A stretch of 64,000 nt of DNA from Chloroflexota bacterium (GTDB taxonomy: Bacteria > Chloroflexota > Dehalococcoidia > Bin125), in NCBI GenBank assembly GCA_028875225.1, contig JAPPFB010000021.1:225831-289830 (forward strand), read 5' to 3'. A program made the position numbers and the translations under genes. Position 1 is the first letter of the stretch; every line of letters begins with the position of its first letter. Below are positions 15,034-61,367 of this stretch, in pieces. The notes under the pieces were generated by a model. That model searched no databases. It had not been told where the DNA came from and was given only the letters and a program-made list of their open reading frames with translations.

Positions 15034-15075
15034 GCTCCCCCTCGCAGGGGGAGCTGCCGAAGGCTGAGGGGGTCC
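15034..15075 (+). repeat. REP-like structured repeat, copy A (subfamily GCTGCC..GGCTGA)
   Basis: gctccccctcgcagggggagctgccgaaggctgagggggtccc. Confidence 0.8.
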
Positions 15076-15090
15076 CGCTGCCTCGCAGTG

Positions 15091-15516
15091 CTACTCCTCC
15101 TCGATCACCCGCTTCAACGCCGCAATCTGACCCCCGTCCGTGCGCCGGATCGCGAGACGGATCAACGGTCCCAGCAGCAGGTACTGCAAGCCTCTGAACT
15201 GGCAATCCGCCTCAAGACTGACCCGACAGCTCGATTCACCCGTCGGCTCAATCGAATACGTGTAGTCCGCCGTCACGCCCCCCTGCTGGGATCGAAGCGT
15301 CACCGACCGTCCGCGCTCACAGTGCGTGATCACTGACTCACGGTCTTGCCCCCGCGTGAAGAAATGGATCCGAGCCCCCTCGACCGTCTCGCCATCGATC
15401 GACATCGACTCGATCCCGTTCATCCAGCGCACCGCCCCGGGCCAGTCGGTCAGTACCGCCCAGACCTCGTCGGGCGGGCGATCGATCGTCTCACTGACCG
15501 AAATTGTCCGCGCCAT
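15091..15516 (-). CDS. SRPBCC (polyketide cyclase/START-like) family protein
   Basis: About 140 aa; N-terminal ...DEVWAVLTDWPGAVRW... fold signature. Confidence 0.65.
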   Translation of the reverse strand: MARTISVSETIDRPPDEVWAVLTDWPGAVRWMNGIESMSIDGETVEGARIHFFTRGQDRESVITHCERGRSVTLRSQQGGVTADYTYSIEPTGESSCRVSLEADCQFRGLQYLLLGPLIRLAIRRTDGGQIAALKRVIEEE

Positions 15517-15576
15517 GCGATTGCTCCCTCCGTTCGCCCTGGACGCGCCCGGTCTCTCGACCGACAGTTTGGCGAC

Positions 15577-15834
15577 CTACCCAAACAGGTCGTCGTCTTC
15601 GTCCCAATCATCGAGATACTCGGTGAGGTCTTCGTCCGGACCGAACGGCAAGTCCTGCTCAAACAGCTCGACGCCGATGATGCCCAGGCCGACCAACGGA
15701 ATGATGTCATGGTCCACGTGCCTCTGCGCCCGCTCCTCAATCCGCCTCTCAGCCGCCTCGTCGCTGCCGGAGAACAGGAGGCGGGCGATCGCGATGACCG
15801 CGACAACAACCACGATGAGGATGATTGCCTCCAC
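15577..15834 (-). CDS. small membrane protein with acidic C-terminus
   Basis: GTG start with GGGA upstream; TM helix IILIVVVVAVIAIA then DE-rich tail. Confidence 0.4.
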   Translation of the reverse strand: MEAIILIVVVVAVIAIARLLFSGSDEAAERRIEERAQRHVDHDIIPLVGLGIIGVELFEQDLPFGPDEDLTEYLDDWDEDDDLFG

Positions 15835-15889
15835 GTCCCTCTCTCTCTCCGCCGTGCCCGCCGTCCATGGCGCGCGACAGACGCCCGCC

Positions 15890-16249
15890 CTACACCAGTT
15901 CCAGCAACTGAACGAAGTTGCCGTCCGGATCGAGCAGAGTAGCGACTTCGCCGCCCCACGATTCCCGCTCCGGCCGTCGTTGAACCCGGACGCTTGGATC
16001 AGCCGAAACGACCCGCTGGAACTCACTCGAGACATCGTCGACGAACAGATTGATCTGCATCCGCGCGGGCTCCAGCGTCGGGCCGGAGATCTCCGAGTGA
16101 TCGAGCAGGCGGATGAACCCGGCCGCGGCTTCGAACACCGGATCGCGGAACTTCGTGACCCGCTCCAGTCCCAGCGTCGCGCCGTAGAAGCGGGTCATCG
16201 CCTCAATCTGGTCCGTGCCGACCATGATCGTCAGCTCGCGCACTCGCAT
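15890..16249 (-). CDS. VOC/glyoxalase-bleomycin resistance family protein
   Basis: About 119 aa; VOC-like motifs. Confidence 0.65.
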   Translation of the reverse strand: MRVRELTIMVGTDQIEAMTRFYGATLGLERVTKFRDPVFEAAAGFIRLLDHSEISGPTLEPARMQINLFVDDVSSEFQRVVSADPSVRVQRRPERESWGGEVATLLDPDGNFVQLLELV

Positions 16250-16257
16250 GACCGACC

Positions 16258-17082
16258 TCAGACCTCCAGGGACATTCCGTCCGTTGCGACCACGATCGTC
16301 CCGTCATACGCCCGCCGCGCTTCCTCGACCAGCTCCCAATCGCGCTCCAGCGACATGATATGGGTCAGGACCAGCGTTCCCACGCCGGCGTCCCGGGCGA
16401 TCCGGCCCGCCGACTCCGCCGTCGAGTGTGTCCCTGCCACCCCTCGGAAGAGGCCCTGCCGACCCGCTTCAGACAATCCCTCGGCCATACGCTCCAGGCA
16501 CGACTCCGTGTACGCCTCGTGTACCAGCACATCGGCGCCGTCGGCCAGTGGGACCAGGGCCTCTGGCGCATACGTGGTGTCGCCCGTGTAGACCAGCGAT
16601 CGCCCACCCGCCTCGAACCGCCGCGCCAGGCACTCCAGGTACGGCGCGTGGGGCACCTCGACCGAGCGCACCTCCATCCCCCCGATTTCGCGCTCATCGC
16701 CCGGCCTCGTCAACTCCACCGACACTCCGTCCAGCCATCGCCGGATGAAGTCGCTCGTCGCATTGACCCGTGCAAACGCCAGCGCCGCCTCCATGTAAGT
16801 GTCCGTATCGCGCGGCCCGAACACCGTCACCGGCGCTCCCCGGCGAACGATCAGCCGGGTGAACAGCTCCACCACGCCCATCGCATGGTCAAAGTGAAGA
16901 TGAGACAAGACCACGTCCGACACCGCGTCCGCATCCAGCCCCGAGTCCACCATCCGCTCCATGAACCCCGGCCCCGCATCCACCAGGATCCGAGCATCAC
17001 CATGAGCCAGATGGATCGACGCCGCCCCCCGCCGAGGGTTCACCGACCCCCCTGCCCCCGACCCACAAAACGTAATCCGCAT
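16258..17082 (-). CDS. MBL-fold metallo-hydrolase
   Basis: SHLHFDH metal-binding motif. Confidence 0.8.
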   Translation of the reverse strand: MRITFCGSGAGGSVNPRRGAASIHLAHGDARILVDAGPGFMERMVDSGLDADAVSDVVLSHLHFDHAMGVVELFTRLIVRRGAPVTVFGPRDTDTYMEAALAFARVNATSDFIRRWLDGVSVELTRPGDEREIGGMEVRSVEVPHAPYLECLARRFEAGGRSLVYTGDTTYAPEALVPLADGADVLVHEAYTESCLERMAEGLSEAGRQGLFRGVAGTHSTAESAGRIARDAGVGTLVLTHIMSLERDWELVEEARRAYDGTIVVATDGMSLEV

Positions 17083-17534
17083 AACTCAAACTCCTCGCCG
17101 CAGGCTACCCCTACAAAACGTCCGACACCCAGTTCCCTCGCCCGTACCGCCCGCATCTCGGACCGTTTGCGACTTCACACTTGCTGCCTGCTTCATCGAA
17201 CACATGTGCATCTAAGATTGTTTCCAGGCTCATCTCAACCCCCACGAAGGACCCCGGCCATGTCCCTTCAGAACTCGCCGACCACGATCGAACCCTTCCG
17301 ACCAGGCCTGCACCGGCCCGACCAGAGCCGACCAGGGCCGTCCAAAATCGTACAAATCCGAACAAATCCGTACAAGGTGAACCGAAAAAACCCGAAAAAA
17401 CCTGAAAGTGCAAACGCACGATCTCCAGTGTTTCACGCGGGATCGTGCTCTGTCCCGTCCCCGAAAAAAGTTTCGCCAAAACCTGAAACCGGCCAACCTC
17501 GACCGATCCACACGAAAGGCAAACACAACCTAGA
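17083..17534. promoter_or_regulatory. Unusually long (452 bp) lower-GC intergenic region with A6 tracts, short direct repeats and an imperfect inverted repeat
   Basis: ccgaaaaaacccgaaaaaacc, gtacaaatccgaacaaatccgtacaa, gcacgatctccagtgtttcacgcgggatcgtgc. Confidence 0.3.
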
Positions 17535-18783
17535 CTCCCAAACCATGCCGCCTCTCTCCGTGCTCCGCGTCCTCGACCATGGCCATGTGTGGGCCGGGCC
17601 TCTGCTGGGCATGTTTCTTGCGGACCTGGGCGCGGAAGTGATCAAGGTGGGCGCGCCTCACCGGCTGTCGGGGGTCTCCATTGGCGGGCAGCGGGCGCCG
17701 GTGGGCTCGATCGGCGGCGACCGTGGCTCGACGTCTCCCGACGATCCGCGCGCCTTCCACGGCCTCGACCGGGGGAAGAAGTCGATCTCGATCCACCTCG
17801 GCGACCCCCGTGGCCGTGAGCTGTACCTCAGACTGGTCGAGCAATCGGACATTGTCCTTGAGAATTTCTCGCCGCGCGTGATGCCATCGCTGGGGCTCTC
17901 CTACGACGTGCTTGCGGAGGTCAACCCGAGGATCATCATGGTTGCCCTGTCCGCCTCTGGAGCGACCGAGAGTCCATGGCGCAACCTGGTGACCTATGGG
18001 CCGTCGCTGGCGGCGCTCTACGGGCTCAAATCGTTGCTCGGTTATCCCGACGACCCGCAACCGCGCGAAGACACCGCCGATCTTGACCCGACCGCCGCCG
18101 GGCATGCCTTCATCGCCGTGCTGGCCGCGCTCGAGTATCGCGAGCGGACGGGCCGCGGTCAGTTCATTGACCTCGCACAGGGAGAAGCCACGCTGCAGCG
18201 GGCGGCGCAACCGCTGATGGACTGGCTGCTCAACCGACGCGACGCCGGACCGCGCGGCAATCGTGGTTCGGCGATGGCGCCGCACGGCGTCTATCCCGCG
18301 CTGGAGGAGGACTCGTGGCTGGCTATCGTGGTCCGCTCGGACGATGAGTGGTCATCGCTCTGTGGTCTCGCGCCACACCTGGATCAGCCGCAATGGTCGA
18401 CCATGCGAGGCCGACTCAATGACCAGGACGCGCTAGACATCGCCGTCTCGAACTGGACTCGCAGCCACGAGGCGATGGAGTTGAGCATCGAGCTCCAGGG
18501 CGTGGGCGTCCCGGCCTTCCCGATGATGGATCCGACCGCCCTGCTAATCGATGAGGACTACGCCGCCCTGTCGAACGCTGGCATCGACCTCAGCGCCGAA
18601 GCCGCCGAGCCTTTGCGCGGCGGCTCGCTGTACACCGGCACCCCCTGGAAGATGGCTCGCACACCAGCAGCGCTCACCGCGCCGATTCCCAACCGAGGTG
18701 AGCACGACGACGAGATCTACGGCGATCTGCTGGGCATTGGCGAAGCAGCACGCACCGAACTTCGCGATTCCGGAGTGATTTGA
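17535..18783 (+). CDS. CoA transferase family III (CaiB/BaiF)
   Basis: N-terminus LSVLRVLDHGHVWAGPLLGMFLADLGAEVIKV; ORF-track N-terminal extension from 16360 rejected. Confidence 0.85.
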
Positions 18784-18862
18784 TCATGCTCCTTCACGTG
18801 CCGGAGCCTGCGGGCGGTTATCCTCGCAACGCTGAACCAGACAGCCAGAGAGGACATCCATT

Positions 18863-19621
18863 ATGTGCCACCGATACGAAGCGCTGCCCGCCATCACGCC
18901 GATCGCCGGAGCAGCGGTTGACGTCGAAGACCTGACCCTGACCGCCTCCGACGGGACCGAGTTCGCCGCCTTCCATGCGCGCGCCGAGTCGCCCACCGGA
19001 CCGGGCATGGTGATCCTGCCCGACGTGCGCGGCCTCTTCCGCTTCTACGAGGAACTCGCGATTCGCTTCGCCGAGATCGGCGTCGACGCCGTCGCGATCG
19101 ACTACTTCGGCCGCACCGCCGGCAACTCCAAGCGCGACGCCGAGTTCGACTTTTGGCCCCACGTGCGCAGCACGACGGCCGAGGGCATCGTCGCCGACAC
19201 GGCCGCCGCTGTGGCCGTGTTGCGCGCCAACGATTCCGAACGGGCCGTCTTCACCGTCGGCTTCTGCTTCGGCGGCAGCAACAGCTGGCTGCAGGCCTCC
19301 GCCGGACACGGGCTGGCCGGCGCGATCGGCTTCTACGGACGACCAACGGCCGAGGGTCTCAATGGCGCGCCGGCGCCGTCGGCCACCGTCTCCGAGATCG
19401 AGTGTCCCATCCTCGGCCTGATGGGCGGAGCCGACGAGAGCATCCCGGCCGAAGCCGTCGCCGAGTGGGACGCCGCTCTTGGGGCCGGCGGCGTCACTCG
19501 CGAGATTGTCACCTACGAGGGCGCCCCGCACAGCTTCTTCGACCGCAGCTACGACGAACACGTCGACGCCTGCAACGACGCCTGGCAGCGAATCCAGAAC
19601 TTCATCGCAGCCAATAGCTAA
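18863..19621 (+). CDS. dienelactone hydrolase family protein
   Basis: DLH-like length and motifs, nucleophile region FCFGGS. Confidence 0.75.
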   Translation: MCHRYEALPAITPIAGAAVDVEDLTLTASDGTEFAAFHARAESPTGPGMVILPDVRGLFRFYEELAIRFAEIGVDAVAIDYFGRTAGNSKRDAEFDFWPHVRSTTAEGIVADTAAAVAVLRANDSERAVFTVGFCFGGSNSWLQASAGHGLAGAIGFYGRPTAEGLNGAPAPSATVSEIECPILGLMGGADESIPAEAVAEWDAALGAGGVTREIVTYEGAPHSFFDRSYDEHVDACNDAWQRIQNFIAANS

Positions 19622-19633
19622 ACCTCATCCTCC

Positions 19634-19680
19634 CTCTCCCCCGCGAAGCAGGGGGGGAGATGCCGAAGGCAGAGTGGGGC
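19634..19680 (+). repeat. REP-like structured repeat, copy B (subfamily GATGCC..GGCAGA)
   Basis: ctctcccccgcgaagcagggggggagatgccgaaggcagagtggggc; its internal ATG creates a false ORF start at 19660. Confidence 0.8.
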
Positions 19681-19707
19681 ACTCGGACAGAATCACGAAA
19701 GGACCTT

Positions 19708-20097
19708 GCCATGCGAGTCACGAAATCATCCGACGGCGACACCAACCAGGCCAACGCGCCCATCTTCACCGGTGGCAACGTCTGGGTCCGGGCCCTGGCC
19801 GGCTCGATCGGCGGACAGAACGCGGCCGACGACGCCGACTTCAACCTGGCGATCGTCCAGTTCGGCGCGGGAGCTCGGACGAAGATGCACACCCACTCGT
19901 CTGAGCAAATGCTGTACGTCGTCTCGGGCATCGGCAAGGTCGGCACCTCCGACGAGGAGCACACCATTTCGGTCGGTGACTTCGCCATCATCCCACCGGG
20001 CGAGGAGCATTACCACGGCGCCGCCGACACCGGTTCGCCCATGTCGCATCTCGCGATCACCCGCCGCGACTCCGTCACCGAGGTCACCGAGGACTGA
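19708..20097 (+). CDS. cupin domain protein
   Basis: Cupin His motifs (MHTHSSEQ...GEEHYH); RBS gaaagga before ATG 19708. Confidence 0.7.
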   Translation, partial: AMRVTKSSDGDTNQANAPIFTGGNVWVRALAGSIGGQNAADDADFNLAIVQFGAGARTKMHTHSSEQMLYVVSGIGKVGTSDEEHTISVGDFAIIPPGEEHYHGAADTGSPMSHLAITRRDSVTEVTED

Positions 20098-20136
20098 TAG
20101 TATCGGTACCATGATGGCGCTTGGCTGGAGTACATC

Positions 20137-20508
20137 ATGGTGACCGAAGAACGCCCAACCGAAGCATGGGGCCCGCGCCCGGGAGAAGACTGGCGCGCCC
20201 ATCGCATGCGCGTGTTCGCCGACTACCCGGAGCATCTCGCAGTGCTCCGAGTCGCCGAATCGCGCGAGCACGAAGCCGAAATCTGGCGGGAGTGGCATGT
20301 CGCGAGCTCGGACAGCGATCCTGATCTGTTGGAGCTGGCTCGCAAAGCGAGATACGACCTGGAAGCGCCGCCCGAGGAAGATGAGGATGACATCCGCTTC
20401 ATCAGAAGCAAGCGAGGCGGAGCAGACGAACGCGTCATGCAGAAATTCTGGAGCTGGTTTGAGAAGAGGTTCCCTGACCAGGTCTATGGGCGCGCCGCAG
20501 ACGCATGA
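20137..20508 (+). CDS. hypothetical acidic protein, candidate atypical antitoxin partner of downstream ParE/RelE-like toxin
   Basis: Stop overlaps toxin start (ATGA); 123 aa, longer than usual antitoxins. Confidence 0.4.
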   Translation: MVTEERPTEAWGPRPGEDWRAHRMRVFADYPEHLAVLRVAESREHEAEIWREWHVASSDSDPDLLELARKARYDLEAPPEEDEDDIRFIRSKRGGADERVMQKFWSWFEKRFPDQVYGRAADA

Positions 20509-21299: not shown

Positions 21300-21320
21300 G
21301 ACCCTCTCCCAGTCCTCAGT

Positions 21321-33555: not shown

Positions 33556-33603
33556 CTTCTCCCCCCTCTGGGGGGAGATGCCGAAGGCAGAGGGGGGTGC
33601 CCT
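33556..33603 (+). repeat. REP-like structured repeat, copy C
   Basis: cttctcccccctctggggggagatgccgaaggcagaggggggtgcc between etfB and etfA. Confidence 0.8.
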
Positions 33604-37748: not shown

Positions 37749-37795
37749 CTCCTCTCCCCCCTCTGGGGGGAGATGCCGAAGGTAGAGGGGGGCGC
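37749..37795 (+). repeat. REP-like structured repeat, copy D
   Basis: ctcctctcccccctctggggggagatgccgaaggtagaggggggcgc; translated as false N-terminus in ORF-track start 37739. Confidence 0.8.
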
Positions 37796-41100: not shown

Positions 41101-41146
41101 ACCTCCCCCTCTGGGGGAGGTGCCGCGAAGCGGCGGAGGGGGCCGC
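41101..41146 (+). repeat. REP-like structured repeat, copy E (hairpin 2 re-paired as GCCGC-GAA-GCGGC)
   Basis: acctccccctctgggggaggtgccgcgaagcggcggagggggccgc. Confidence 0.75.
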
Positions 41147-48508: not shown

Positions 48509-49948
48509 TCAGCCCCCGCCGCCTCCAGCGCCACCGCCACCACCGCTGCCGAGGCGCTCCTCAACCACATCTTGCTGCGGCGCCCAGCGGGCGGCCGCGC
48601 CGTTGATCACCACCGTGGCAGCGGCGCTCACCGCCGCAGAGGCCCTCGCCAACATGCTCTCCTCAACCAGTTCACCGTGCACGAAGGTGGAACGCAACCT
48701 CGGCATGCCCACGGCCCAGAGCAGCAAGGCGACAAAGAACAGGATCCCCGGAATGGTCAACAGATAGCGGACATTCACCACATCGGAAGCGAGGCCGTTG
48801 GCGAGGATCATCAGGGCCATGATCCCGCCCGCAAACATCGCATAGAGGCTCATCACCCGACCGCGAATCGCGTCCGGTACGACCGCCTGGATCATCACGC
48901 TCGACAGCGCCATAAACATCGCCTGGGTCGCGCCGACCAGCGCGGCGCCCAGGATCGCGATCGGCAAACTGCCGGCGAGTCCCAGGATCGGCATCAGGAT
49001 GCCGCTGGACAGGCCACAGAAGAGCATTAGCCGGCCTCGAATTGGCCCGGCGGGAACCATCGAGAGCGTCACGGTTGCCACCAGCGCCCCGCCCCCTACA
49101 CCCATCACCAGGTAGCCGTACTCATTCGCGCCGCCGTTGAGCACGTTCTTGGCAAACACGACCAGCAGCGCGTCGAACGACATCACCAGCATGCAGTGCA
49201 GCGCCGTCAGCGCAATCAGCATCCGCACCCCCCGAGCCCGTCCCAGGTAGGCCAGTCCTTCGCGAACGTGCGTCGCCGCGTCGCGGAGGATGCCCGACGT
49301 CGTCCCGGCCACGATCCCACCCGTCGAGCGGACCTTAATCCGGGTCATCTGCCAGACTGAAAGCGCCAGCAGGAATGACGCGCCCAGGAACACCCAGCCG
49401 GGCCCGAACTCGGCCAGCACCGGACCTGCCACCGGGCCAATCACGCGCGAGCCGAATTGCATCATCGAGGCCAGGGTGATCGCTGAGAGCAACGCCGCCA
49501 TCTTGACCGTGTTGGGCAGCAGCGCCGCCTGAGCCGGCATCTCGGCGGAACGGATGATCCCCGAGAGCGCCGTCACCAGAATCAGGTTCCAGAGCGCGAT
49601 CTCGCCGGTGAAGGCCAGGACGGCCAGGGCGAGTGCCAGGATCCCGGCGCCAATCCGGCTGAGCATCACCACCCGTGCGCGGTCAAAGCGGTCCGCCAGC
49701 GCGCCGCCGATCGGAGCCAGCACCCACGGGCCAATCGCGGCGAAGTACACCACCCCGACCGCCCAGCCGCTGTTCGTCAGGTCCCCCGCGAGCCAGCCCC
49801 GAGCCGTGATCAACGCCCACAGGGAAATCGCCGATAGGCCCGCCGCATAGAACAGCTTGCGGTACTCAAGCGACTCCATCGCCGGGAACAACCGCAGCAG
49901 GCGCCCGGGCTCCTGAGTCCCTGGCTCCATGTTCCTCAGTTGCGACAT
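48509..49948 (-). CDS. MFS transporter (EntS/MFS_3-like) with C-terminal poly-Gly tail
   Basis: 12-TM profile; ...ALADRFDRARVV...; ends GSGGGGGAGGGGG. Confidence 0.8.
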   Translation of the reverse strand: MSQLRNMEPGTQEPGRLLRLFPAMESLEYRKLFYAAGLSAISLWALITARGWLAGDLTNSGWAVGVVYFAAIGPWVLAPIGGALADRFDRARVVMLSRIGAGILALALAVLAFTGEIALWNLILVTALSGIIRSAEMPAQAALLPNTVKMAALLSAITLASMMQFGSRVIGPVAGPVLAEFGPGWVFLGASFLLALSVWQMTRIKVRSTGGIVAGTTSGILRDAATHVREGLAYLGRARGVRMLIALTALHCMLVMSFDALLVVFAKNVLNGGANEYGYLVMGVGGGALVATVTLSMVPAGPIRGRLMLFCGLSSGILMPILGLAGSLPIAILGAALVGATQAMFMALSSVMIQAVVPDAIRGRVMSLYAMFAGGIMALMILANGLASDVVNVRYLLTIPGILFFVALLLWAVGMPRLRSTFVHGELVEESMLARASAAVSAAATVVINGAAARWAPQQDVVEERLGSGGGGGAGGGGG

Positions 49949-50011: not shown

Positions 50012-51427
50012 CTAGTCGCCGCCGCCCAGCTGTTCCTCCACCACGCTCCGTTGCGGGGCCGGACGCGACGCCAGGACCACGGGCCGCAGCGCAGCGGAAG
50101 CCGTGGCCGCCGCCTGCCGTGCCACCTCACGCGCCATCCGCCGGCCCTCTTCGACGAGTTCGCCGTTGCGAATCACTGACCGGATCCCCGGGAGGACCAA
50201 TGCGATCAGCATGATCGCGGCGAAGATAAAGCCGGGCGCAACCAACAGCAGACGAATGCTGATGTAATCCGCCGCCAGCCCATTGACCAGGATCATCACC
50301 GCCATGATCCCACCCGCGAACATCATGTAGAGGCTCATCACGCGACCGCGCACGGAATCGGGCAGAACAGCCTGGATCATGGCGCTGGTCAGGACCATAA
50401 ACATCGCCTGACTTGCCCCCGCAATCACGCTGCCGATTAGCGCCAACAGCAACGAATCCACCAATCCGACCCAGACCAGGGAAAGCCCCGAAACGATCCC
50501 CGCGACGATGAAGACACGCCCGCGGATTGCGCCAATCGGCAACATCGACAATCCCACCGACGAAATCAGCGCCCCGCTGCCGAGCGCCATCAGCAGGTAT
50601 CCGTACTCCGACTGCCCGCCGCCCAGGATCAGGTCCGCGTAGGCCGGCAACAGCGAGAAGTCGAAGGCCATCGTGAACATGCAGTGCAACGAGACCATGA
50701 TGATCATCAACCGCACTGACGGCGTACGACCGAGATAGCGCAATCCATCGCGAATATGTCCGACGGTGTCGCGAAGCAGTCCGCCCGTATGACCCGCGAT
50801 GCCACCCGTCGATCGAGTAGTCATCCGGGTCATTTGCAGAATCGACAGCATCAGGAACAACGCCGCCCCGACGAACACCCACTCGGCGCCGAATGCTTGC
50901 AGAACTGGACCCGCAACCGGGCCGATCACCTTAGACCCGAACTGCATCATCGAGGCCATCGTGACCGCGCTCAACAAGGCATGCAGCTTGACCGTGTTCG
51001 GCAACAGCGCCTGCAGCGCCGGCATCTCTCCGGAGCGAATGATGCCGGAGATCAACGTGATGATGACCAGATTCCAAATTGTCAACTGACCGCTAAACGC
51101 CAGGAAGGCAAGTCCGAGCGCGCACAGTGCCGCCCCGCAGCGGCAGATAATCACGATCCTGGCGCGATCGAAGCGGTCCGCCAGCGCGCCCGCGAACGGC
51201 GCCAGCACCCATGGAAAGATCGCCGCAAAGGTGACGATCCCGGTGCCCGATGGATTGCCGGTCAGCTCATAGCCCAACCAGCCGCTGGCGACGATCATCG
51301 CCCACAGGGAAACGGAGGACAGCCCCGCCGCGTAGAACATGCGGCGGTACTCGAGATACTGCATCGCCGGGAAGATGCGGAGTAGGAACCCTTGCGGTCT
51401 GGCCTCGACCTCGGTCTGTTGACTCAT
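50012..51427 (-). CDS. MFS transporter, tandem paralog of 48509..49948
   Basis: Collinear similarity throughout (LRIFPAMQYLEYRRMFYAAGLS...). Confidence 0.8.
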   Translation of the reverse strand: MSQQTEVEARPQGFLLRIFPAMQYLEYRRMFYAAGLSSVSLWAMIVASGWLGYELTGNPSGTGIVTFAAIFPWVLAPFAGALADRFDRARIVIICRCGAALCALGLAFLAFSGQLTIWNLVIITLISGIIRSGEMPALQALLPNTVKLHALLSAVTMASMMQFGSKVIGPVAGPVLQAFGAEWVFVGAALFLMLSILQMTRMTTRSTGGIAGHTGGLLRDTVGHIRDGLRYLGRTPSVRLMIIMVSLHCMFTMAFDFSLLPAYADLILGGGQSEYGYLLMALGSGALISSVGLSMLPIGAIRGRVFIVAGIVSGLSLVWVGLVDSLLLALIGSVIAGASQAMFMVLTSAMIQAVLPDSVRGRVMSLYMMFAGGIMAVMILVNGLAADYISIRLLLVAPGFIFAAIMLIALVLPGIRSVIRNGELVEEGRRMAREVARQAAATASAALRPVVLASRPAPQRSVVEEQLGGGD

Positions 51428-53236: not shown

Positions 53237-53243
53237 GAACAAA

Positions 53244-53290
53244 GAGCTCCCCCTCCGGGGGAGCTGTCGCGAAGCGACTGAGGGGGCTCG
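53244..53290 (+). repeat. REP-like structured repeat, copy F (hairpin 2 re-paired as GTCGC-GAA-GCGAC)
   Basis: gagctccccctccgggggagctgtcgcgaagcgactgagggggctcg. Confidence 0.75.
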
Positions 53291-54885: not shown

Positions 54886-56268
54886 CTACACCTCAAGCTC
54901 CGGACGCTGCATGATCCAGTCCGTCGACTGCTCATACGCATGCGCCACCCGACAGACCGTCGCCTCGTCGAAGTGCCGACCACCGATCATCAAGCCAATC
55001 GGCATCCCGTTGCGGTCATACCCACAGGGAATCGAGATCGCCGGAATGCCGGTCACGTCGTACGGAGCCGTCAATCGGGCCAGTTCCGCCGTCGGATCGC
55101 CATCCTCGATTGACGGCGCTGTCCGAGAGCATGTCGGCGAGATCAACACGTCTACGTCCTGCAACACCTCAACCGTTTCGTCGATGAATCTGCGACGCAG
55201 CCGCTGGTCGTTGATGTAATCCACGGCCGTCACCGACAGCCCGGCCTCAACCCGCTCGAGAATGTCGCCATACTCATCCCGCCGCTCCCGCAGCCACTTG
55301 GCGTGATAGGCCGCGGCCTCGGCGATGATCGTCAGCCCCCGCGGACGATCGGTCTGCAGTGGCATCTCGACCTCGGTCACCGTCGCGCCCATGCTGCGCA
55401 GGTGATCGACTGCGATCTCGCAGTGCTCGACCACATCCTCCTCACAGCCCTGCCAGAGCATCTGACGCGGTATCCCAATCCGAATGCCGTCCACGCCTTC
55501 GACCAGCGTCTCGGTGCAGTCGCCAACCGGCACGTCCGCGCTACCCGGATCCTCCGCGTCGTAGCCCGCGATCGCATTCAGCACCAGCCCGGCGTCTTCG
55601 ACCGTCTTCGTCAGCGGACCGACATGGTCCAGGGTCCACGACAGCGGCAGCACGCCCCGTCGCGAGACCCGGCCGTACGTCCCCATCAGACCGGTCACAC
55701 CACACACGCTGGCCGGAATCCGGATGCTGCCGCCCGTATCCGAGCCCAGCGCCCCCAGCGACGATCCCACAGCCACCGACGCGCCCGAACCGCCGCTGCT
55801 TCCGCCCGGCACCTTCTCCAGATCCCACGGATTGTGCACCGCGCCGTAGTGCGGATTCCGGCTGGTCGTGCCAAACGCAAACTCGTGCAGATTCAGTTTG
55901 CCCGGCATCACCGCGCCGGCCTCTTTCAGCTTCCTGTACACCACCGCATCCGTGTCGGGAATGCGGTCGCGTAGGAATCCACCGCCGCCGGTCGTCGCAA
56001 TGCCCGCCGTATTGACGAGGTCCTTCAGCGCCACCGGAATCCCGTGCAGAGGCCCCAGGTCGCGCCCGTCTCGCAACAGATCGTCCGCTGCCGACGCCTG
56101 CTCGCGCGCTAGCTCGGCGGTGACCGTGATGTACGCGTTGAGCAGCGGCTCGGTCGCCTCCAGCCTGGCAAGCACCGATTCAGTCAGCTCAACAGCCGTG
56201 AGCGTGCCGTCGCGCAGCGCGACCCCGGCCTCGACGATCGAGAGGTCATACGGCTCACGATGATCCAT
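54886..56268 (-). CDS. amidase (amidase-signature family, GatA-like)
   Basis: GGSSGGSGA...GSDTGGSIRIPA AS signature; K..S..S triad context. Confidence 0.9.
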   Translation of the reverse strand: MDHREPYDLSIVEAGVALRDGTLTAVELTESVLARLEATEPLLNAYITVTAELAREQASAADDLLRDGRDLGPLHGIPVALKDLVNTAGIATTGGGGFLRDRIPDTDAVVYRKLKEAGAVMPGKLNLHEFAFGTTSRNPHYGAVHNPWDLEKVPGGSSGGSGASVAVGSSLGALGSDTGGSIRIPASVCGVTGLMGTYGRVSRRGVLPLSWTLDHVGPLTKTVEDAGLVLNAIAGYDAEDPGSADVPVGDCTETLVEGVDGIRIGIPRQMLWQGCEEDVVEHCEIAVDHLRSMGATVTEVEMPLQTDRPRGLTIIAEAAAYHAKWLRERRDEYGDILERVEAGLSVTAVDYINDQRLRRRFIDETVEVLQDVDVLISPTCSRTAPSIEDGDPTAELARLTAPYDVTGIPAISIPCGYDRNGMPIGLMIGGRHFDEATVCRVAHAYEQSTDWIMQRPELEV

Positions 56269-56269
56269 T

Positions 56270-56482
56270 TCAGTCCTCCGCTCCGCCGCGCAGATCGCCG
56301 ACGTCGTAGCGCAGCCCTATTGCGGGCTCAGTTTCGCCCAGGTCGGGCAGCGGATCAGTCCGCAACGCGTTCTTCAGCGTGCGCGTCACGATCGGCAGCG
56401 CCCGCTCCAGATCTGCTTCGCTCGCAGACGCGCCGAGCGACTCGGCCAGCGCCGCCAGCGCTTCCAATGGTGAGTCAGCCAT
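56270..56482 (-). CDS. small (70 aa) protein translationally coupled upstream of amidase; possible GatC/AtzG-like partner subunit
   Basis: Stop 1 nt from amidase ATG; helical acidic sequence with ...DPLPDLGETEPA tail reminiscent of the GatC C-terminus; ATG at 56482. Confidence 0.4.
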   Translation of the reverse strand: MADSPLEALAALAESLGASASEADLERALPIVTRTLKNALRTDPLPDLGETEPAIGLRYDVGDLRGGAED

Positions 56483-56523
56483 ACCCGCTCCTCTCCCGCT
56501 CAATGCGTGGCGCGTCCCACAGT

Positions 56524-56610
56524 TGTCATTCCCAGCTCTGCTGGGAATCTCGTTCCCCTCTGCGCCAACCTCGACATGCGAGATTCCCAGACAAGCTGGG
56601 AATGACACAA
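56524..56610. repeat. composite inverted repeat: two about 28-nt hairpin-forming palindromes (GTCATTCCCAGCTnTGnCTGGGAATCTCG) in inverted orientation separated by 26 nt
   Basis: ttgtcattcccagctctgctgggaatctcg ... cgagattcccagacaagctgggaatgacaca; lies in divergent promoter region. Confidence 0.75.
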
Positions 56611-56695
56611 AGGCAGAAACGAGCGATTTCGGCGCCATTCTACGATGCTGCTCCTATCCTGACCTGGAATGAGACCGCCGTAAGGAGCCCAACCG

Positions 56696-57484
56696 ATGGC
56701 AGATGAAGTCCTCTTCGACGTATCCGAACGAGTCGCCACGATTACGCTCAACCGCCCCGACAAGATGAACACGATTAACAGCGCCCTCGGTTCTCAGTTG
56801 ATCGAGTCGCTGGTCGAAGTGCGCAACAACGACGAGATCCGCTCAGCCGTGATCACCGGCGCGGGCGACCGCGCCTTCTGCGCCGGCGCCGACCTCACCC
56901 AGGGCGACGGACCCGCCGCCTCCGCCGGTCCCGCCGGCCATTTCCCCACCAACGCCGCCGACCGATTCGACGAGTTCGACGCCAAGAAGCCGCTCATCGC
57001 GGCCATCAATGGCCACGCCCTCGGCGGCGGCTTCGAGATCGCCCTCGTCTGCGACCTGCGCATCGGCGCCGAGAACGCCCGCGCCCGCCTCGGCCTGCCC
57101 GAGATCACGCTCGGCTTCTTCCCCCTCGCCGGCGGACCCATGCGCCTGCCCCGCGCCATCCCGCAGGCCTACGCCAACGAGATGCTCTACCTCGGCCGCC
57201 GCCTGAGCATGGAGGAAGCCCACCAGTGGGGCGTCATCTCCCGCCTCGTGCCCCAGGACCAACTCCTTCCCACCGCCCAGGAGATGGCCGCCCAGGTCGC
57301 CGGATACGCTCCCATCGCCGTCCGAGCCATGAAAGAACTGATCAACGCCCAGGGAGACATGACCCTCGCCCAGGCCAACCGTTTCGGCGGCTCCCTGCGC
57401 TGGATCGTCGGCCAAACCGCCGACTCGAAGGAAGGCCCCCGAGCCTTCGCCGAAGGCCGCCAACCCGAGTTCAAGGGCGAGTGA
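56696..57484 (+). CDS. enoyl-CoA hydratase/isomerase family protein
   Basis: ITLNRPDKMNT...FCAGADL...GGGFEIALVCDLRIGA. Confidence 0.85.
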   Translation: MADEVLFDVSERVATITLNRPDKMNTINSALGSQLIESLVEVRNNDEIRSAVITGAGDRAFCAGADLTQGDGPAASAGPAGHFPTNAADRFDEFDAKKPLIAAINGHALGGGFEIALVCDLRIGAENARARLGLPEITLGFFPLAGGPMRLPRAIPQAYANEMLYLGRRLSMEEAHQWGVISRLVPQDQLLPTAQEMAAQVAGYAPIAVRAMKELINAQGDMTLAQANRFGGSLRWIVGQTADSKEGPRAFAEGRQPEFKGE

Positions 57485-57551
57485 GAATCCAGGGCATTGC
57501 CAGGTTCGATAGGCTGGCACCTGAGAACAACGCATCAATCGGGCCAACCCC

Positions 57552-57851
57552 ATGACCACCGCCGACCAGATCGAGCTCAACATCAGGATCGACAAAAGGG
57601 TCAAGCAACGCCTCATTGACGAGGCGTCGCGTCAAGGATTCGAAATCGATGTCTTCTGCCAGCAGGCGATTCAGCAAGCGCTTGAAGACGGCAAGGCCGA
57701 AGAATCTGTGAAGGAAACGAACCTCCAACTCTTCGAGAGACTCCTGGAAGAGAGAGACGAACAGTTCGGAGATCGACGGTTCTTGAAAACTGGCGTTGAG
57801 TTGATTCGTGAGGCCCGCGAACTCCGCTCAAAGCAGATGGACGAGTGGTAG
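57552..57851 (+). CDS. vapB: type II antitoxin (VapB-like)
   Basis: 99 aa, charged helical; stop overlaps PIN gene start; low-GC patch. Confidence 0.65.
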   Translation: MTTADQIELNIRIDKRVKQRLIDEASRQGFEIDVFCQQAIQQALEDGKAEESVKETNLQLFERLLEERDEQFGDRRFLKTGVELIREARELRSKQMDEW

Positions 57852-58294
57852 TGGCGGAGTTGGTTGTCGTCGATGCCAGCTTGGCCTTCAAATGGTTCGT
57901 CAAAGAAGATGACTCTGACCACGCTGATGCACTCGGTCGTACCTGGTTGGAACGGGATGTCCGAGTCGCAGGGCCACTCACTCTGTTGGTAGAGCTGACG
58001 AACGCTGTGCATCGTCGTATCCAATCCGGACGCCTTGAGGAGCGGGAATGGCGATTCGCCATAGGCCGCATGATGCAGTTTCCGTTCGCGATAGAAGAGT
58101 CGCAGCACCTCATCCCCCGTACCCTCGAACTGGCCAGACAGCTCGGACAAGGTGCCGTCTACGACTCCCACTATCTCGCTCTCGCAGAGTCTCTGGACTG
58201 CGAACTCTGGACCGCGGACGAGCGCTTTCAGCGCGCCGCACGAGGGCAACATCCGCGCGTACGCCTACTCGCAGAGTTCGCCCCTCTAGCCTGA
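57845..58294 (+). CDS. vapC: PIN-domain toxin VapC
   Basis: VVVDASLAFKWF..E(D)...DSHYLALAE..DCELWTAD PIN acidic residues; GTG start overlapping vapB stop. Confidence 0.8.
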   Translation: MVVAELVVVDASLAFKWFVKEDDSDHADALGRTWLERDVRVAGPLTLLVELTNAVHRRIQSGRLEEREWRFAIGRMMQFPFAIEESQHLIPRTLELARQLGQGAVYDSHYLALAESLDCELWTADERFQRAARGQHPRVRLLAEFAPLA

Positions 58295-58320
58295 GAGCTC
58301 GACACGACAGGATCCAACCC

Positions 58321-58920
58321 ATGAGAAGCCAGGAATCGCTCAACGAACTCCGCTACCTCCGACGCATCCAGGAAGACGTCGAGGACCAGTGGCGCGCCCG
58401 ACAACCCGACCTCGACCGTCTCCACCGGACCATGGCCCTGCTCTACTCCAGCCACGGCCTCGTCTGGAAATCCCACGGTTGCTCCGGCACCGGCGAGCAC
58501 GACCCCTACGCCGGCGAGATCGTCGAACTCGCCCTGCGCATCGAGTCCTCAGCCCAGCGAGGCGCCCACCGAGCCTTCAACCTCTTCGAGCAGTGGCGCT
58601 GCGAGGCCTGCAGCTGGAACCACAACGCCCTCTACACCCTCTGGGCCACCACCGCCGAGCCTGGAGCCGAGTTCCAACCCCTCGACGCCATCGACGACCA
58701 CCGCCTCATGCACGAACGCGCCGACCAGGGCCTCGACCAACCCCTCCCCGAAGCTCTCGACATCCGCAACAACGCCGCATCCATCCGCCTCGAAGCCAAC
58801 GCCCGAATCGCCGAACGCCTCGCCCACTGGACCTCGGAAGGCCTCCTCAGCAACAACGTCGACGAACGCTACGCCACCGAACTCACCGCGCCAGCCGCAG
58901 TGCCGGTCTCAACCTCATGA
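58321..58920 (+). CDS. hypothetical protein (199 aa), translationally coupled to downstream CoA transferase
   Basis: ATGA overlap at 58917-58920; protein-like composition. Confidence 0.5.
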   Translation: MRSQESLNELRYLRRIQEDVEDQWRARQPDLDRLHRTMALLYSSHGLVWKSHGCSGTGEHDPYAGEIVELALRIESSAQRGAHRAFNLFEQWRCEACSWNHNALYTLWATTAEPGAEFQPLDAIDDHRLMHERADQGLDQPLPEALDIRNNAASIRLEANARIAERLAHWTSEGLLSNNVDERYATELTAPAAVPVSTS

Positions 58921-60104
58921 CCTACCTCCCCCTCGACCACCTCTTCGTCCTCGACCTCACCCGCGCCCGCGCCGGACCCACCGCCACGCGACAGCTCGGC
59001 GACTGGGGCGCCGACGTGCTCAAGATCGAGCAGCCCGAGGTCCCCGGACAGGGCGAAGGCGTCACCGGCGCCCGCGAGTCCTCCGACTTCCTCAACCTGC
59101 ACCGCAACAAGCGCTCCCTCACCCTCAACCTCAAGGAGCCTGAGGCGGTCGAGATCTTCCTCTCCCTCGTCGAGCGCGCCGACGTCGTCGTCGAGAACTA
59201 CCGCGCCGACGTCAAGCGACGCCTCGGCATCGACTACGACGCCTGCCGCGCCCGCAACCCGCGCATCGTCTACGGCTCGATCTCCGGCTTCGGACAGGAC
59301 GGACCCTACGCCTGGCGCGCCGGCGTCGACCAGATCGCCCAGGGCCTCGGCGGGATCATGTCCGTCAACGGACTGCCCGGCTCGGGACCCGTCCGCGTCG
59401 GCATCCCCATCGCCGACCTTACCGCCGGCAACTTCCTCGCCCAGGCCATCCTCATCGCCCTGATCGAGCGGGAGCGCTCCGGCGAGGGCCAGTGGGTCCA
59501 CACCTCGCTGCTCGAGGCCCAGATCGCCATGCTCGACCTCCAGGCCACCCGCTGGACCATCGACGGAGAGGTTCCGCCGCAGGCCGGCAACGACCACCCC
59601 ACGCTGATGCCCACCGGCGTCTACGAGACTTCCGACGGCCACATCAACATCGCCGCCTCCGGCGGCGTCATGTACACCCGACTCTGCCGAGCCATCGGCG
59701 CCGAGGAGCTCCTCGACCACCCCGACTACGCCAGCTCGGTCCGCCGCTCCAAGAATCGAGTCGCACTCAACGAGGCCATCAACCAGCGCACCCGAACCAA
59801 CACCTCCGAGCACTGGATCCAGTGCCTCAACGAGGCCGGCGTCCCCTGCGGACCGATCTACGACATCCCCGGAACCTTCGACGACAAACAGGTCAAGCAC
59901 CTCGACATCGCCCGCCAGGCCCCGCACCCCGAGCGAGGCGAAATCACCGTCGTCGGACAACCGATCAACCTCGCCCGAACTCCCCAACCCGACAAGATGC
60001 GCCTCGGCACCCCCGCCCTCGGCCAACACAACCATGAAGTCCTCACCGACCTCGGCTACACCCCCGAATCCATCACCGACCTCCAAAATCGAGGAGTCAT
60101 CTAG
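58917..60104 (+). CDS. CoA transferase family III (CaiB/BaiF)
   Basis: 395 aa; DHLFVLDLTRARAGPTATRQLGDWGADVLKIE... family signature. Confidence 0.85.
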   Translation: MTYLPLDHLFVLDLTRARAGPTATRQLGDWGADVLKIEQPEVPGQGEGVTGARESSDFLNLHRNKRSLTLNLKEPEAVEIFLSLVERADVVVENYRADVKRRLGIDYDACRARNPRIVYGSISGFGQDGPYAWRAGVDQIAQGLGGIMSVNGLPGSGPVRVGIPIADLTAGNFLAQAILIALIERERSGEGQWVHTSLLEAQIAMLDLQATRWTIDGEVPPQAGNDHPTLMPTGVYETSDGHINIAASGGVMYTRLCRAIGAEELLDHPDYASSVRRSKNRVALNEAINQRTRTNTSEHWIQCLNEAGVPCGPIYDIPGTFDDKQVKHLDIARQAPHPERGEITVVGQPINLARTPQPDKMRLGTPALGQHNHEVLTDLGYTPESITDLQNRGVI

Positions 60105-60108
60105 CGTG

Positions 60109-60160
60109 CTCCCCCTGCTCCCCCTTTGCAGGGGGAGCTGCCGAAGGCTGAGGGGGTCCC
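60109..60160 (+). repeat. REP-like structured repeat, copy G1 (tandem with G2)
   Basis: ctccccctgctccccctttgcagggggagctgccgaaggctgagggggtcccc. Confidence 0.8.
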
Positions 60161-60200
60161 CCGCCGCAACCAACTCTCCCTCTCGCCCGTCCGTTTCCGC

Positions 60201-60250
60201 TCTCCCCCCGCGAAGCGGGGGGAGATGCCGCAGGCAGAGGGGGGCTCCCC
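60201..60250 (+). repeat. REP-like structured repeat, copy G2
   Basis: ctctccccccgcgaagcggggggagatgccgcaggcagaggggggctccc. Confidence 0.8.
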
Positions 60251-60300
60251 TGAGTACCAACTACCCTCCAACTAACCCGCCAACCCGCCGGAGACCCCCA

Positions 60301-61107
60301 ATGAAGAACCACGTCCCCCTCGACACCGACAAGATGCTCGCCTGGTCAGAGGACGGCATCGGCTGGATGGTCTTCAACAACCCCGACAAGCTCAACGCCA
60401 TGGGCGTCGCCATGAACGCCGCTATCCCCACCATCATGCACACCTTCCGCGACGACCCCGACGTCCGCGTCGTCGTCATGGCCGGCGCCGGCGACCGCGC
60501 CTTCGTCTCCGGCGCCGACATCTCCGAGTTCGAAGCCCAGCGCTCCAACCCCGAGACGATCAAGAAGTACGACGAAATCGGCGCCGCCGCCGGTCGCGCC
60601 TACGGCGAGCTCGACAAGCCGATCATCGCCATGATCCAGGGCTTCTGCATGGGCGGCGGCCTGCTCACCGCGCTCCGCGCCGACCTCCGCATCGCCTCCG
60701 ACGACTCCCAGTTCGGTGTCCCCGCCGCCCGCCTCGGCCTCGGCTACGGCTATGGCGGCGTCAAGACCCTCTGCGACCTCGTCGGCTTCCCCGCCGCCCA
60801 GGAAATCCTGCTCACCGGCAAACGCTTCCCCGCCGCCGACGCCGCCCGCTGGGGCCTCGTCAACCGCGTCACCACTCGCGACGACCTCGAACCCACCGTC
60901 CACGAGCTCGCCGCCACCATCGCACAGAACGCCCCCAAGACCATCCGAGCCATCCGCCGAGCCATCCAGGAAATCCCCAAAGACCCCGACCACCGAAACC
61001 TCGACGAAGTCAACGCCCTCGTCCAGGCCTGCTTCGCCTCAGCCGACTACAAAGAAGGCCGAACCGCCTTCATGGAAAAACGCCGCCCCCAGTTCCGCGA
61101 CGCCTGA
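60301..61107 (+). CDS. enoyl-CoA hydratase/isomerase family protein
   Basis: 268 aa; FVSGADISEF...GFCMGGGLLTALRADLRIAS. Confidence 0.85.
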   Translation: MKNHVPLDTDKMLAWSEDGIGWMVFNNPDKLNAMGVAMNAAIPTIMHTFRDDPDVRVVVMAGAGDRAFVSGADISEFEAQRSNPETIKKYDEIGAAAGRAYGELDKPIIAMIQGFCMGGGLLTALRADLRIASDDSQFGVPAARLGLGYGYGGVKTLCDLVGFPAAQEILLTGKRFPAADAARWGLVNRVTTRDDLEPTVHELAATIAQNAPKTIRAIRRAIQEIPKDPDHRNLDEVNALVQACFASADYKEGRTAFMEKRRPQFRDA

Positions 61108-61317
61108 CCTCCGATCCCCTCTCCCTCTGGAGAGTTGCGCGTAAACATTTGAAGAAGTCGCCCCCGCGAAGGCAGGGGCCGCCCGACCACTGCTCGCCTA
61201 ACTCCGATGCCCCGCACTTGCCTGCCCCTGGCTTGAACAGGGGATGCGGGGCCCAGACCCAGATCGCCGCCCAACCCCGTCATTCTCGCGCAAACGGGGG
61301 AATCTCGCCCCTTCACG

Positions 61318-61367
61318 CTCTCCCCCCGCGAAGCGGGGGGAGATGCCGAAGGCAGAGGGGGGGGCTC
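61318..61367 (+). repeat. REP-like structured repeat, copy H
   Basis: ctctccccccgcgaagcggggggagatgccgaaggcagagggggggg. Confidence 0.8.

Follow-up and report, generated by a model that had tools for sequence, protein, structure and literature searches.

The stretch analysed here, called the window throughout, comprises 64,000 nucleotides of a Chloroflexota genome (Dehalococcoidia; assembly GCA_028875225.1, contig JAPPFB010000021.1, positions 225,831 to 289,830), and our subject is a family of short structured repeats interspersed among its genes. A sequence-only reading of the window had reported nine copies of one polarity, each just 3' of a + strand gene, and had argued for a role at the RNA level. 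An nhmmer profile of 144 copies finds exactly nine in the window, each 39-46 bp long, on the + strand and no more than 8 nt from where that reading had placed it. The pattern CTCCCCCN{3,9}GGGGGAG has 8 matches against 0.00 expected (100 shuffles), in a window of 64.7% G+C; the ninth copy (19635-19679) falls outside this pattern, with a longer loop and a G7 run. An independent repeat finder also ranks the family top among the short interspersed repeats of the window (D2/D3). The common polarity holds within the window, where there is no full - strand copy and the - strand nhmmer matches are to the palindromic first hairpin only. Two subfamilies had been distinguished; we find three, designated A..A, C..T and G..G, the last of these at 41102. 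The extents listed below run from the first paired base to the end of the 3' G-run.

15034-15072 (+): copy 1, C..T subfamily, 10 nt 3' of the thyX stop
19635-19679 (+): copy 2, A..A subfamily, 13 nt 3' of the dienelactone hydrolase stop, cupin gene downstream
33558-33597 (+): copy 3, A..A subfamily with a TCT loop, 12 nt 3' of the etfB stop
37753-37792 (+): copy 4, A..A subfamily, 10 nt 3' of the metallophosphoesterase stop, VWA gene downstream
41102-41142 (+): copy 5, G..G subfamily, 9 nt 3' of the VWA gene stop
53246-53286 (+): copy 6, C..T subfamily, 9 nt 3' of the ilvD stop
60117-60156 (+): copy 7, C..T subfamily, 12 nt 3' of the CoA-transferase stop
60201-60244 (+): copy 8, A..A subfamily, 44 nt after copy 7, enoyl-CoA hydratase gene downstream
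61319-61364 (+): copy 9, A..A subfamily, 3' G-run lengthened to G8

The neighbouring genes (thyX, dienelactone hydrolase, etfB and etfA, metallophosphoesterase, VWA, ilvD, CoA-transferase, enoyl-CoA hydratase and MmeI-like) are confirmed by Pfam. Placement just past a + strand stop codon describes seven copies, which start 9-13 nt after it. Copies 8 and 9 lie farther away, at 96 nt from the CoA-transferase stop and 211 nt past the enoyl-CoA hydratase stop respectively, and copy 9 ends 47 nt 5' of the MmeI-like start. Copies 1 and 6 stand in convergent spacers, so each is also downstream of a - strand gene (a polyketide-cyclase gene that ends at 15091 and an SNase-domain gene). Copy 3 ends 34 nt 5' of the etfA start, within the etfB-etfA operon. 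No shared flanks or duplications surround the solo copies of the window. The 9-13 nt spacing is not a rule of the family: only 10 of 96 copies elsewhere lie within 13 nt of a stop, and in the window the position is forced because the spacers are only 67-149 nt long. An apparent enrichment of TAG stops beside the copies was likewise rejected, as TAG is the commonest stop of the lineage (25 of 50 in the window, 226 of 486 in relatives).

Anatomy and covariation of the element

Read 5' to 3', the element follows the plan N0-CTCCCCC(C), loop 1, (G)GGGGGAG-N1, T-G-stem-GNA-stem-C, N2-GAGGGGG(G). Because the variable length of loop 1 put the 5' arm out of register in MAFFT, the family was analysed by nhmmer profile, regular-expression parsing and explicit pair counts. 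Both hairpins of the sequence-only reading are real. The closing pair of hairpin 1, N0:N1, covaries (T:A 97, G:C 31, C:G 11), while loop 1 is hypervariable, 3-8 nt long, and often lengthens the stem as GC-NNN-GC. Hairpin 2 occurs in 23 linker variants with pairing kept in all of them, including TGCC/GGCA, TGTCAC/GTGACA, TGTCGC/GCGACA, TGTCCC/GGGACA, TGCCCC/GGGGCG, TGCCGC/GCGGCG and TCCCGC/GCGGGT. Among 25 distinct 14-nt linkers, 94.7% of cells are paired and three pairs change on both sides, a covariation score reached by none of 500 shuffles. In some arms of miniature inverted-repeat transposable elements (MITEs), an A-rich linker replaces hairpin 2 and the mirror arrangement is kept. Since every linker variant pairs and an A-rich linker can substitute, hairpin 2 is a replaceable turn.

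The third domain, the 3' G-run, changes together with hairpin 1. In 126 distinct copies the N0/N1/N2 triples are T/A/A in 76, G/C/T in 23 and C/G/G in 16, and the proportions are the same in 55 copies whose selection did not depend on the scanned core (34, 10 and 7). The C-run, purine run and mirror run are equal in length, 6-6-6 or 5-5-5, and length switches occur within subfamilies as well; purine and mirror runs are (6,6) in 51 copies and (5,5) in 35. Variants with AAG, found in Pasteurellaceae and a Chloroflexi metagenome-assembled genome (MAG), are changed in all three domains (CTTCCCC / GGGGAAG / GAAGGGG), and the table of AG or AAG against GAG or GAAG reads 64/0/1/4 (Fisher p=6e-6). Two other ideas were tried and rejected. 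Pairing of N2 with the T that opens hairpin 2 is not supported (U:A 9, U:G 8, unpaired 8), and the motif is not protein-coding in the frame G-E-[LMV]-P-K-A-E-G, as insertions occur in all three antisense frames.

Class II motifs consist of a pyrimidine run, a complementary purine run and a mirror purine run, with triplets G*G:C and A(T)*A:T (PMC4666352). All nine copies parse in this way on one strand, as pyrimidine run (Y), loop, purine run (R), linker and mirror run (RH); in copy 1, Y is 15034-15041, R is 15047-15054, the linker TGCCGAAGGC is 15055-15064 and RH is 15065-15072. Under a strict definition (antiparallel mirror, at least 6-7 triplets, at most one mismatch), a generic triplex-motif finder recovers 8 of 9 copies, with 7-9 triplets, and nothing in 20 block-shuffles of the window. 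The sole miss is copy 2, at 19635, the most decayed of the nine, with its G7 purine run and the mirror run GAGTGGGG. Loop 1 fits the limits of published searches, which are 1-6 nt for ITxF and 0-10 nt in Hoyne et al., but these searches would miss the family because the spacer that separates the purine run from its mirror, at 12-16 nt, exceeds those limits (PMC4666352). Judged by sequence, the architecture of the element is that of a class II purine-motif potential intrastrand triplex (PIT) in which a hairpin serves as the second loop.

Individual copies differ in their details. The linker of copy 4, TGCCGAAGGT, gives a G-T pair. Hairpin 2 is longer by 2 bp, with compensatory changes, in copy 5 (TGCCGC-GAA-GCGGCG) and copy 6 (TGTCGC-GAA-GCGACT). 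A partial extra pyrimidine arm, CTCCCCCTG, directly precedes copy 7 at 60109-60116, and in copy 8, which has the linker TGCCGCAGGC, a GCGAAGC loop lengthens hairpin 1 to 11 bp. The ATG at 19660, inside copy 2, creates a false start of an open reading frame (ORF), as had been proposed. The sequence-only reading had also suggested that the G-run could pair with the C-run in an alternative helix. This helix appears in the RNA minimum-free-energy folds (ViennaRNA) of the two copies with TCT loops; the other seven fold into the two hairpins. As a general feature it was rejected, since GAGGGGG mirrors GGGGGAG and is not the complement of the C-run.

DUF559 neighbours, mobility and distribution

A set of 80 metagenome loci encoding DUF559 proteins (L130-L209) was fetched by protein similarity alone. 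Strict class II motifs occur in 64 of them (165 motifs, against 0 in shuffles), at densities of 4.1/kb in the 5' flank scanned and 3.1/kb in the 3' flank, compared with 0.33/kb elsewhere, or roughly 10-fold. The arrangement is polar. Upstream of DUF559, sense motifs outnumber antisense motifs by 50 to 21 (p=8e-4), and at its 3' end antisense motifs outnumber sense motifs by 41 to 9 (p=6e-6). The G-run of the upstream sense copy often ends 1-8 nt before the DUF559 ATG, like a ribosome-binding site, and the antisense 3' copy lies at or over the stop codon. The motif family varies from locus to locus. Hairpin linkers are common among the motifs, and the TGCCGAAGGC linker recurs there on other stems. 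In many DUF559 proteins the C-terminal peptide is encoded by an antisense repeat, either of the window family or of the type of TMECO, a repeat of E. coli compared below; TMECO itself follows the DUF559 gene ycjD in E. coli (L125). At these loci, inverted class II motifs flank a nuclease gene in the manner of a REPtron. DUF559 has a Vsr-like PD-(D/E)XK fold, and its profile matches the mobile-intron homing endonuclease PDB 3r3p. Of 25 papers that mention DUF559, none names it in its title or abstract and none has a title on repeats; the TMECO paper does not mention the family (PMC4666352).

The window family is among the repeats that adjoin DUF559. The DUF559 gene of Aggregatibacter and Haemophilus has a variant copy immediately 5' of it and overlaps the element at its 3' end; copies also stand beside DUF559 in Rodentibacter, an Abditibacteriales MAG, an Anaerolineales locus and Chloroflexota-type loci. 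The order sense motif, DUF559, antisense motif recurs in an alphaproteobacterial MAG and in Rodentibacter and Actinobacillus loci. Window-family copies form the full inverted arrangement in L012, L037 and L127, and adjoin DUF559 in a less complete form in L107, L152, L206 and L210. In Rodentibacter rarus (L127, 1250-2560), a unit of an AAG-variant copy, DUF559 and an antisense canonical copy is repeated about three times in tandem, with two intact DUF559 genes.

The element behaves as mobile DNA, occurring in MITE and insertion sequence (IS) ends, in frame within genes and next to DUF559. As a GC-rich block some 40 bp long, it is conspicuous in AT-rich hosts. Antisense, in-frame insertions are found in MnmE of two Flavobacteriaceae, RecJ of a Candidatus Nomurabacteria MAG and a tRNA methyltransferase of Aequorivita, as well as in DUF559 C-termini; they add peptides such as PSAFGISPQGGE. 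In the MnmE loop, peptide footprints of the insertion are kept in about 24 of 120 homologues. The host genes with in-frame insertion are as follows.

L033, 1983-3407 (-)
L102, 6923-7999 (-)
L109, 4998-6845 (-)
L038, 389-1126 (-)

Long MITE arms on Dialister and Paludibacteraceae contigs contain the motif as a module, and MITE-like units of about 200-250 bp that contain it occur in other genomes. A 1.35-kb unit in three Dehalococcoidia loci (L020; L071, 5060-6408; L072) encodes an IS110-family DEDD transposase and has, about 20 nt in from either end, full window-family copies in inverted orientation. Between genomes this unit is 98% identical; inverted repeats GGAGRCCTTTG.ATAAT bound it, and its insertions, which duplicate 5 bp (ATGAC, GCAGG), are in loops of other hairpins. 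Derivatives without the gene, some 200 bp long, are multi-copy in OZ242281. In the non-coding left end of the unit (L071, 5229-5351, -) there is a sub-threshold Rfam match to the Xanthomonadaceae small RNA sX15 (33 bits, E=0.002), and the sX15 family might derive from a non-coding RNA of the IS110 type.

The family extends well beyond the window, and the proposal of a structured, REP-like (repetitive extragenic palindromic) family stands. The exact 26-nt core GGGGGAGNTGCCGAAGGCNGAGGGGG is present in more than 117 stretches of species-representative genomes from at least 6 phyla, with hosts that include Chloroflexota, Pasteurellaceae, Phenylobacterium, Dialister, Clostridia, several Bacteroidota families, Abditibacteriales and a Candidatus Nomurabacteria MAG. 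Viral contigs account for only 4 stretches with the element, and a phage feature was rejected on this count. By blastn the element has no match in plasmids, phages or 5,426 E. coli genomes; the negative holds at a sensitivity that detects TMECO in 4,420 E. coli genomes. A full-text literature search for the core, on either strand, returned no paper.

Closer to the source organism, an ilvD protein identical at every residue is encoded on a 242-kb ENA metagenome scaffold and by GCA_028874415.1. Loci with 80-88% coding identity belong to Chloroflexota/Dehalococcoidia MAGs, and isolate names suggest that these related MAGs come from marine sponges. At four orthologous spacers of such relatives, a copy sits in the same place and orientation with a different subfamily or loop, and the flanks are too diverged to align. 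Copy 3 has its etfB-etfA orthologue in L011, and copy 4 has orthologues with different loops in L058, L080 and L105. At the site of copy 5 (G..G in the window), L058 and L080 carry A..A-type copies, and at that of copy 6 (C..T in the window), L084 carries an A..A-type copy. As far as sequence comparison tells, these spacers are sites of turnover, recurrent insertion or conversion.

Relation to BoxC/TMECO, REPs and other palindromic repeats

The BoxC/PIT/TMECO elements are abundant, highly conserved repeats known since the 1990s. To our knowledge, they have had no origin, mobility gene or function assigned in more than 20 years, nor has DUF559, a very large family, been given a role. They share with the window family a class II design on one strand (C-rich run, loop, G-rich run, loop, mirror). 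Both kinds are 35-45 bp, multi-copy and intergenic, with conserved stems and variable loops; both occur often as inverted pairs, in spacers that vary between relatives, and in several phyla; and both adjoin DUF559 genes. The sequences are unrelated, with CTCCCCC/GGGGGAG/GAGGGGG in the window family and CCCTCNCCC/GGGNGAGGG/GGGNGAGGG in TMECO, whose published pattern is CCCTCNCCC-N3-6-GGGNGAGGG-N3-GGGNGAGGG (PMC4666352). This pattern has 0 matches in the window. The stems of the window family form 7-9 triplets, and its second loop is a covarying mini-hairpin of 10-14 nt, compared with 3 nt in TMECO. TMECO is reported to show no strand bias, to be always intergenic and never to be near mobility genes (PMC4666352), whereas the window family has an orientation bias of about 2:1, inserts in frame in genes and forms part of MITE and IS ends. 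TMECO has no terminator or promoter activity and is linked to local genomic variability (PMC4666352). TMECO oligonucleotides are reported to form a stable triplex in vitro by circular dichroism and nuclear magnetic resonance.

The exact TMECO/BoxC pattern occurs in 8 of the loci that we fetched (L019, 5800-5832; L036, L040, L044, L045, L069, L085 and L101), 7 of them from Chloroflexota MAGs and 1 from a MAG labelled Proteobacteria. TMECO and the window family coexist in these MAGs, outside the proteobacterial genomes of the original reports.

REPs are defined by a GTAG or CGTC tetranucleotide at one end of a 20-40 bp palindrome (PMC3733652). Like REPs, bacterial interspersed mosaic elements (BIMEs) and REPtrons, the window family consists of short palindromic extragenic sequences that follow ORFs and lie in same-direction or convergent spacers (PMC3733652). 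Further likenesses are some intragenic copies, several subfamilies per genome, a place as parts or targets of IS110-family elements, and a nuclease gene between inverted copies, which is a REP-associated tyrosine transposase (RAYT) gene for REPs and DUF559 here. Neither a GTAG nor a CGTC tag lies in or beside any of the nine copies, and no RAYT was noticed among the few neighbouring genes scanned beside window-family copies. The window family differs from REPs in its third, mirror-repeat domain, in an associated gene with the PD-(D/E)XK Vsr-like fold rather than an HUH tyrosine transposase, and in a near-identical 26-nt core across phyla, where a REP family usually belongs to one species or genus.

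Other small palindromes are comparable in behavior. Mitochondrial GC clusters, or double-hairpin elements, are small palindromic selfish elements. The Rickettsia palindromic elements (RPE), reportedly described by Ogata et al. in 2000, are small selfish palindromes inserted in frame in protein genes. The window family resembles them in its in-frame insertion, tolerated as extra surface peptides. RPE differ in that they are 100-150 bp long and restricted to one lineage, and we know of no triplex-type mirror repeat or DUF559 link described for them.

Explanations for the family

We consider the window family to be a REP-like, non-autonomous DNA repeat of the intrastrand-triplex type, with a hairpin as its turn and DUF559 as its probable partner; we give this explanation a probability of roughly 60%. 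Its parts are not equally firm. We are largely confident that the family is a REP-like interspersed DNA repeat with a triplex-type architecture. Whether the potential triplex in this sequence actually forms and matters is an even call, and that DUF559 is the cognate enzyme of the repeat family comes a shade below even. The most tightly conserved feature is the mirror symmetry of both purine runs, with the three-way covariation; a purine-motif triple helix is preferred because it accounts for this and a model of RNA hairpins does not.

From direct observations of sequence, covariation, distribution and gene association, we infer how the DNA may fold, what the nuclease may do and how copies may spread. 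Hairpin 1 would form when the strand is single-stranded, as in replication, repair or a transcription bubble. Hairpin 2 would turn the chain back, and the 3' G-run would lie in the major groove of hairpin 1 to give G*G:C and A*A:T triplets. Selection would then conserve the folded DNA, not the transcript, and the folded DNA would be the probable substrate of the small DUF559 (Vsr-like, PD-(D/E)XK) endonuclease, whose gene, across bacteria, lies between sense upstream and antisense 3' copies as RAYT genes do between REPs. The solo copies of the window could be dispersed non-autonomous progeny, accumulating where they do least harm (past stops, in convergent spacers, in protein surface loops) and turning over or being converted in place.

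More tentatively, class II repeats as a whole, including the window family, BoxC/TMECO and others, may be the offspring of a pan-bacterial selfish DUF559 system whose nuclease drives copying or conversion. A DUF559 gene with its own motif inverted on either side would be the autonomous unit, and the nuclease would recognise the folded single-stranded triplex-hairpin. New sites would include in-frame positions in essential genes, and the module would move between phyla, among Chloroflexota, Pasteurellaceae, Bacteroidota, Bacillota, Abditibacteriota and bacteria of the candidate phyla radiation. If this is true, BoxC/PIT elements gain an origin and DUF559 gains a function, and bacteria possess a system like REP/RAYT that is built on a different DNA fold and nuclease. 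It would also explain the GC-rich 40-mers found in frame in MnmE or RecJ of AT-rich genomes, and would give annotators grounds for masking the elements, which create false starts (as at 19660) and false C-terminal extensions. The window family is a second, much more widespread family of the BoxC structural kind, and its built-in covarying hairpin makes the three-domain fold testable by comparative analysis. In the source organism, copies mark gene ends and fast-evolving spacers, and may influence mRNA 3' ends.

Several observations weigh against this explanation. The TMECO triplex was undetected in vivo by dimethyl sulfate footprinting, and double-stranded DNA stayed duplex (PMC4666352). The second loop of the window family, 12-16 nt and hairpin-forming, lies beyond published search definitions; the outermost triplet of the C..T subfamily, T*C:G, is non-canonical; and the covariation comes from three subfamilies and the AAG variants only, so it reflects few independent events. 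No DUF559 gene lies within the window, and none was seen in about 100 sampled Dehalococcoidia loci. It may simply be that repeats land in or near DUF559 genes because they are tolerated there. Among the three source-species assemblies, no presence/absence polymorphism of the window family was seen. Finally, a pure DNA-level model does not predict the sense bias and closeness to stops seen in related genomes, which leaves room for selection at the RNA level. There, with orientation counts that are approximate because the gene calls are those of our own codon-usage caller, 94 copies outside the window comprise 35 sense, 18 antisense, 32 convergent and 9 divergent placements. The excess of sense over antisense in co-directional spacers has p=0.027. 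The 5' side of the element is a median of 70 nt from a same-strand stop, compared with 138 nt from its 3' side to an opposite-strand stop (p=0.001).

The orientation of copies is predicted as well by strand composition as by gene direction. Copies lie on the C-rich strand by 75 to 32, and in a breakdown by third-codon and intergenic GC skew only the combination of sense and C-rich strand is enriched (27, compared with 8-9 in each other cell). A polarity is therefore present, but it is neither strict nor RNA-specific; the strict polarity of the sequence-only reading is a property of the window, and about 100 related Chloroflexota copies show a sense bias of about 2:1. The + strand of the window is itself C-rich, with an overall GC skew of -0.088 and an intergenic skew of -0.11. 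Third-codon skew is -0.28 in + strand genes and +0.12, in coding sense, in - strand genes, which is again C-rich on the + strand. The + strand nevertheless carries about 77% of the coding sequence, an unusual arrangement if the leading strand is the G-rich one.

These biases speak for an RNA-level 3' element, in which sense hairpins would terminate transcription, or would block 3'-5' exonucleases and set cistron levels, like the REPs of E. coli. Seven of the nine copies start close past a stop, and convergent pairs in L042 and L111 hold two tail-to-tail copies, each sense to its own gene. The predicted hairpins have energies of -21 to -28 kcal/mol, and REPs generally lie downstream of ORFs, with many thought to act in RNA (PMC3733652). 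Of the RNA-level claim, the polar link to gene ends stands. A canonical terminator is unlikely because no copy has a T-run in the 12 nt that follow it, no + strand terminator-like site coincides with any of the seven copies scanned, and one copy lies between etfB and etfA; in no case does a hairpin run directly into a T/U run, as in an intrinsic (Rho-independent) terminator. Fold z-scores are modest, at -1.0 to -2.9. Rfam 15 gives 0 matches across the whole window at gathering thresholds, and permissive thresholds around three copies give chance-level matches only (E>=1.4). Antisense copies make up about one third of those in co-directional spacers, divergent spacers hold 9, and the intragenic copies in other phyla are antisense. 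Mismatches of the closing pair are C.A (5-6) rather than G.U (1), with no sign of the wobble tolerance of a sense RNA. The mirror purine run and three-way covariation would go unexplained, as purine-motif triplexes are reported not to form in RNA, and the related PIT/TMECO elements lack terminator and promoter activity (PMC4666352). An RNA-level role as the basis of the family is thus unlikely in our judgment; sense copies, which fold into two stable hairpins in the transcript, may still protect mRNA 3' ends as a by-product, which would account for the polarity.

Alternatively, the family could be an ordinary REP or MITE moved by a single-strand transposase (HUH/Y1, RAYT or IS200-type) for which the G-run is just part of the recognition sequence, without any role for a triplex or DUF559. 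It has typical REP traits, being short, GC-rich, hairpin-forming and extragenic, in same-direction or convergent spacers with occasional intragenic copies (PMC3733652). Its orientation also tracks strand composition, as noted above. A bias of this kind is expected if transposition is coupled to replication, as for IS608-type elements. Yet neither end of the copies carries the GTAG or CGTC tag, no Y1 transposase gene was noticed beside them in the few loci whose neighbours were examined by Pfam, and the mirror symmetry, matched run lengths and three-domain AAG change would have no explanation. The strong, oriented association is with DUF559, and we regard movement by such a transposase as improbable. 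The least probable account, to which we give very little weight, makes the family a by-product of IS110/IS1111-family elements, either as a sub-terminal repeat or as a bridge-RNA target, with solo copies as scars or safe-harbour targets. Full copies do lie inside both ends of the IS110-type unit in three loci, and IS110-family elements are known to target REP-type repeats (PMC1525189, PMC11208160). Solo copies, however, lack the terminal repeats of the unit, and the unit inserts in the loops of other hairpins and not in the window element. It was seen in a few genomes only, the motif in at least 6 phyla, and the window has no IS110-family gene that was noticed. Nor can a solo element of 40 bp be an excised double-stranded circle.

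Other features of the window lie apart from the family. A toxin-antitoxin-like pair, a small ORF followed by a PIN-domain gene, occupies 57552-58294, and the MmeI-like type IIL restriction-modification gene (61412-64000) runs past the window end. Two tandem paralogous genes for major facilitator superfamily transporters lie on the - strand at 48509-49948 and 50012-51427; they share 70-75% identity along much of the sequence (repeat families D1, D4, D6 and D9; spacing 1485 nt). A second family of hairpin repeats, GTCATTCCCAGC-loop-GCTGGGAAT(GAC), occurs at 56525-56549 (+), inverted at 56582-56606, and also at 61279-61304. The first two of these hairpins lie within a 99-bp stretch upstream of the enoyl-CoA hydratase gene at 56696. 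The stretch varies in presence at the strain level: it is in L001, which is the same as the window, and is missing from L002. In L072 the IS110-type unit is inserted at a hairpin related to the GTCATTCCCAGC/GCTGGGAAT family.

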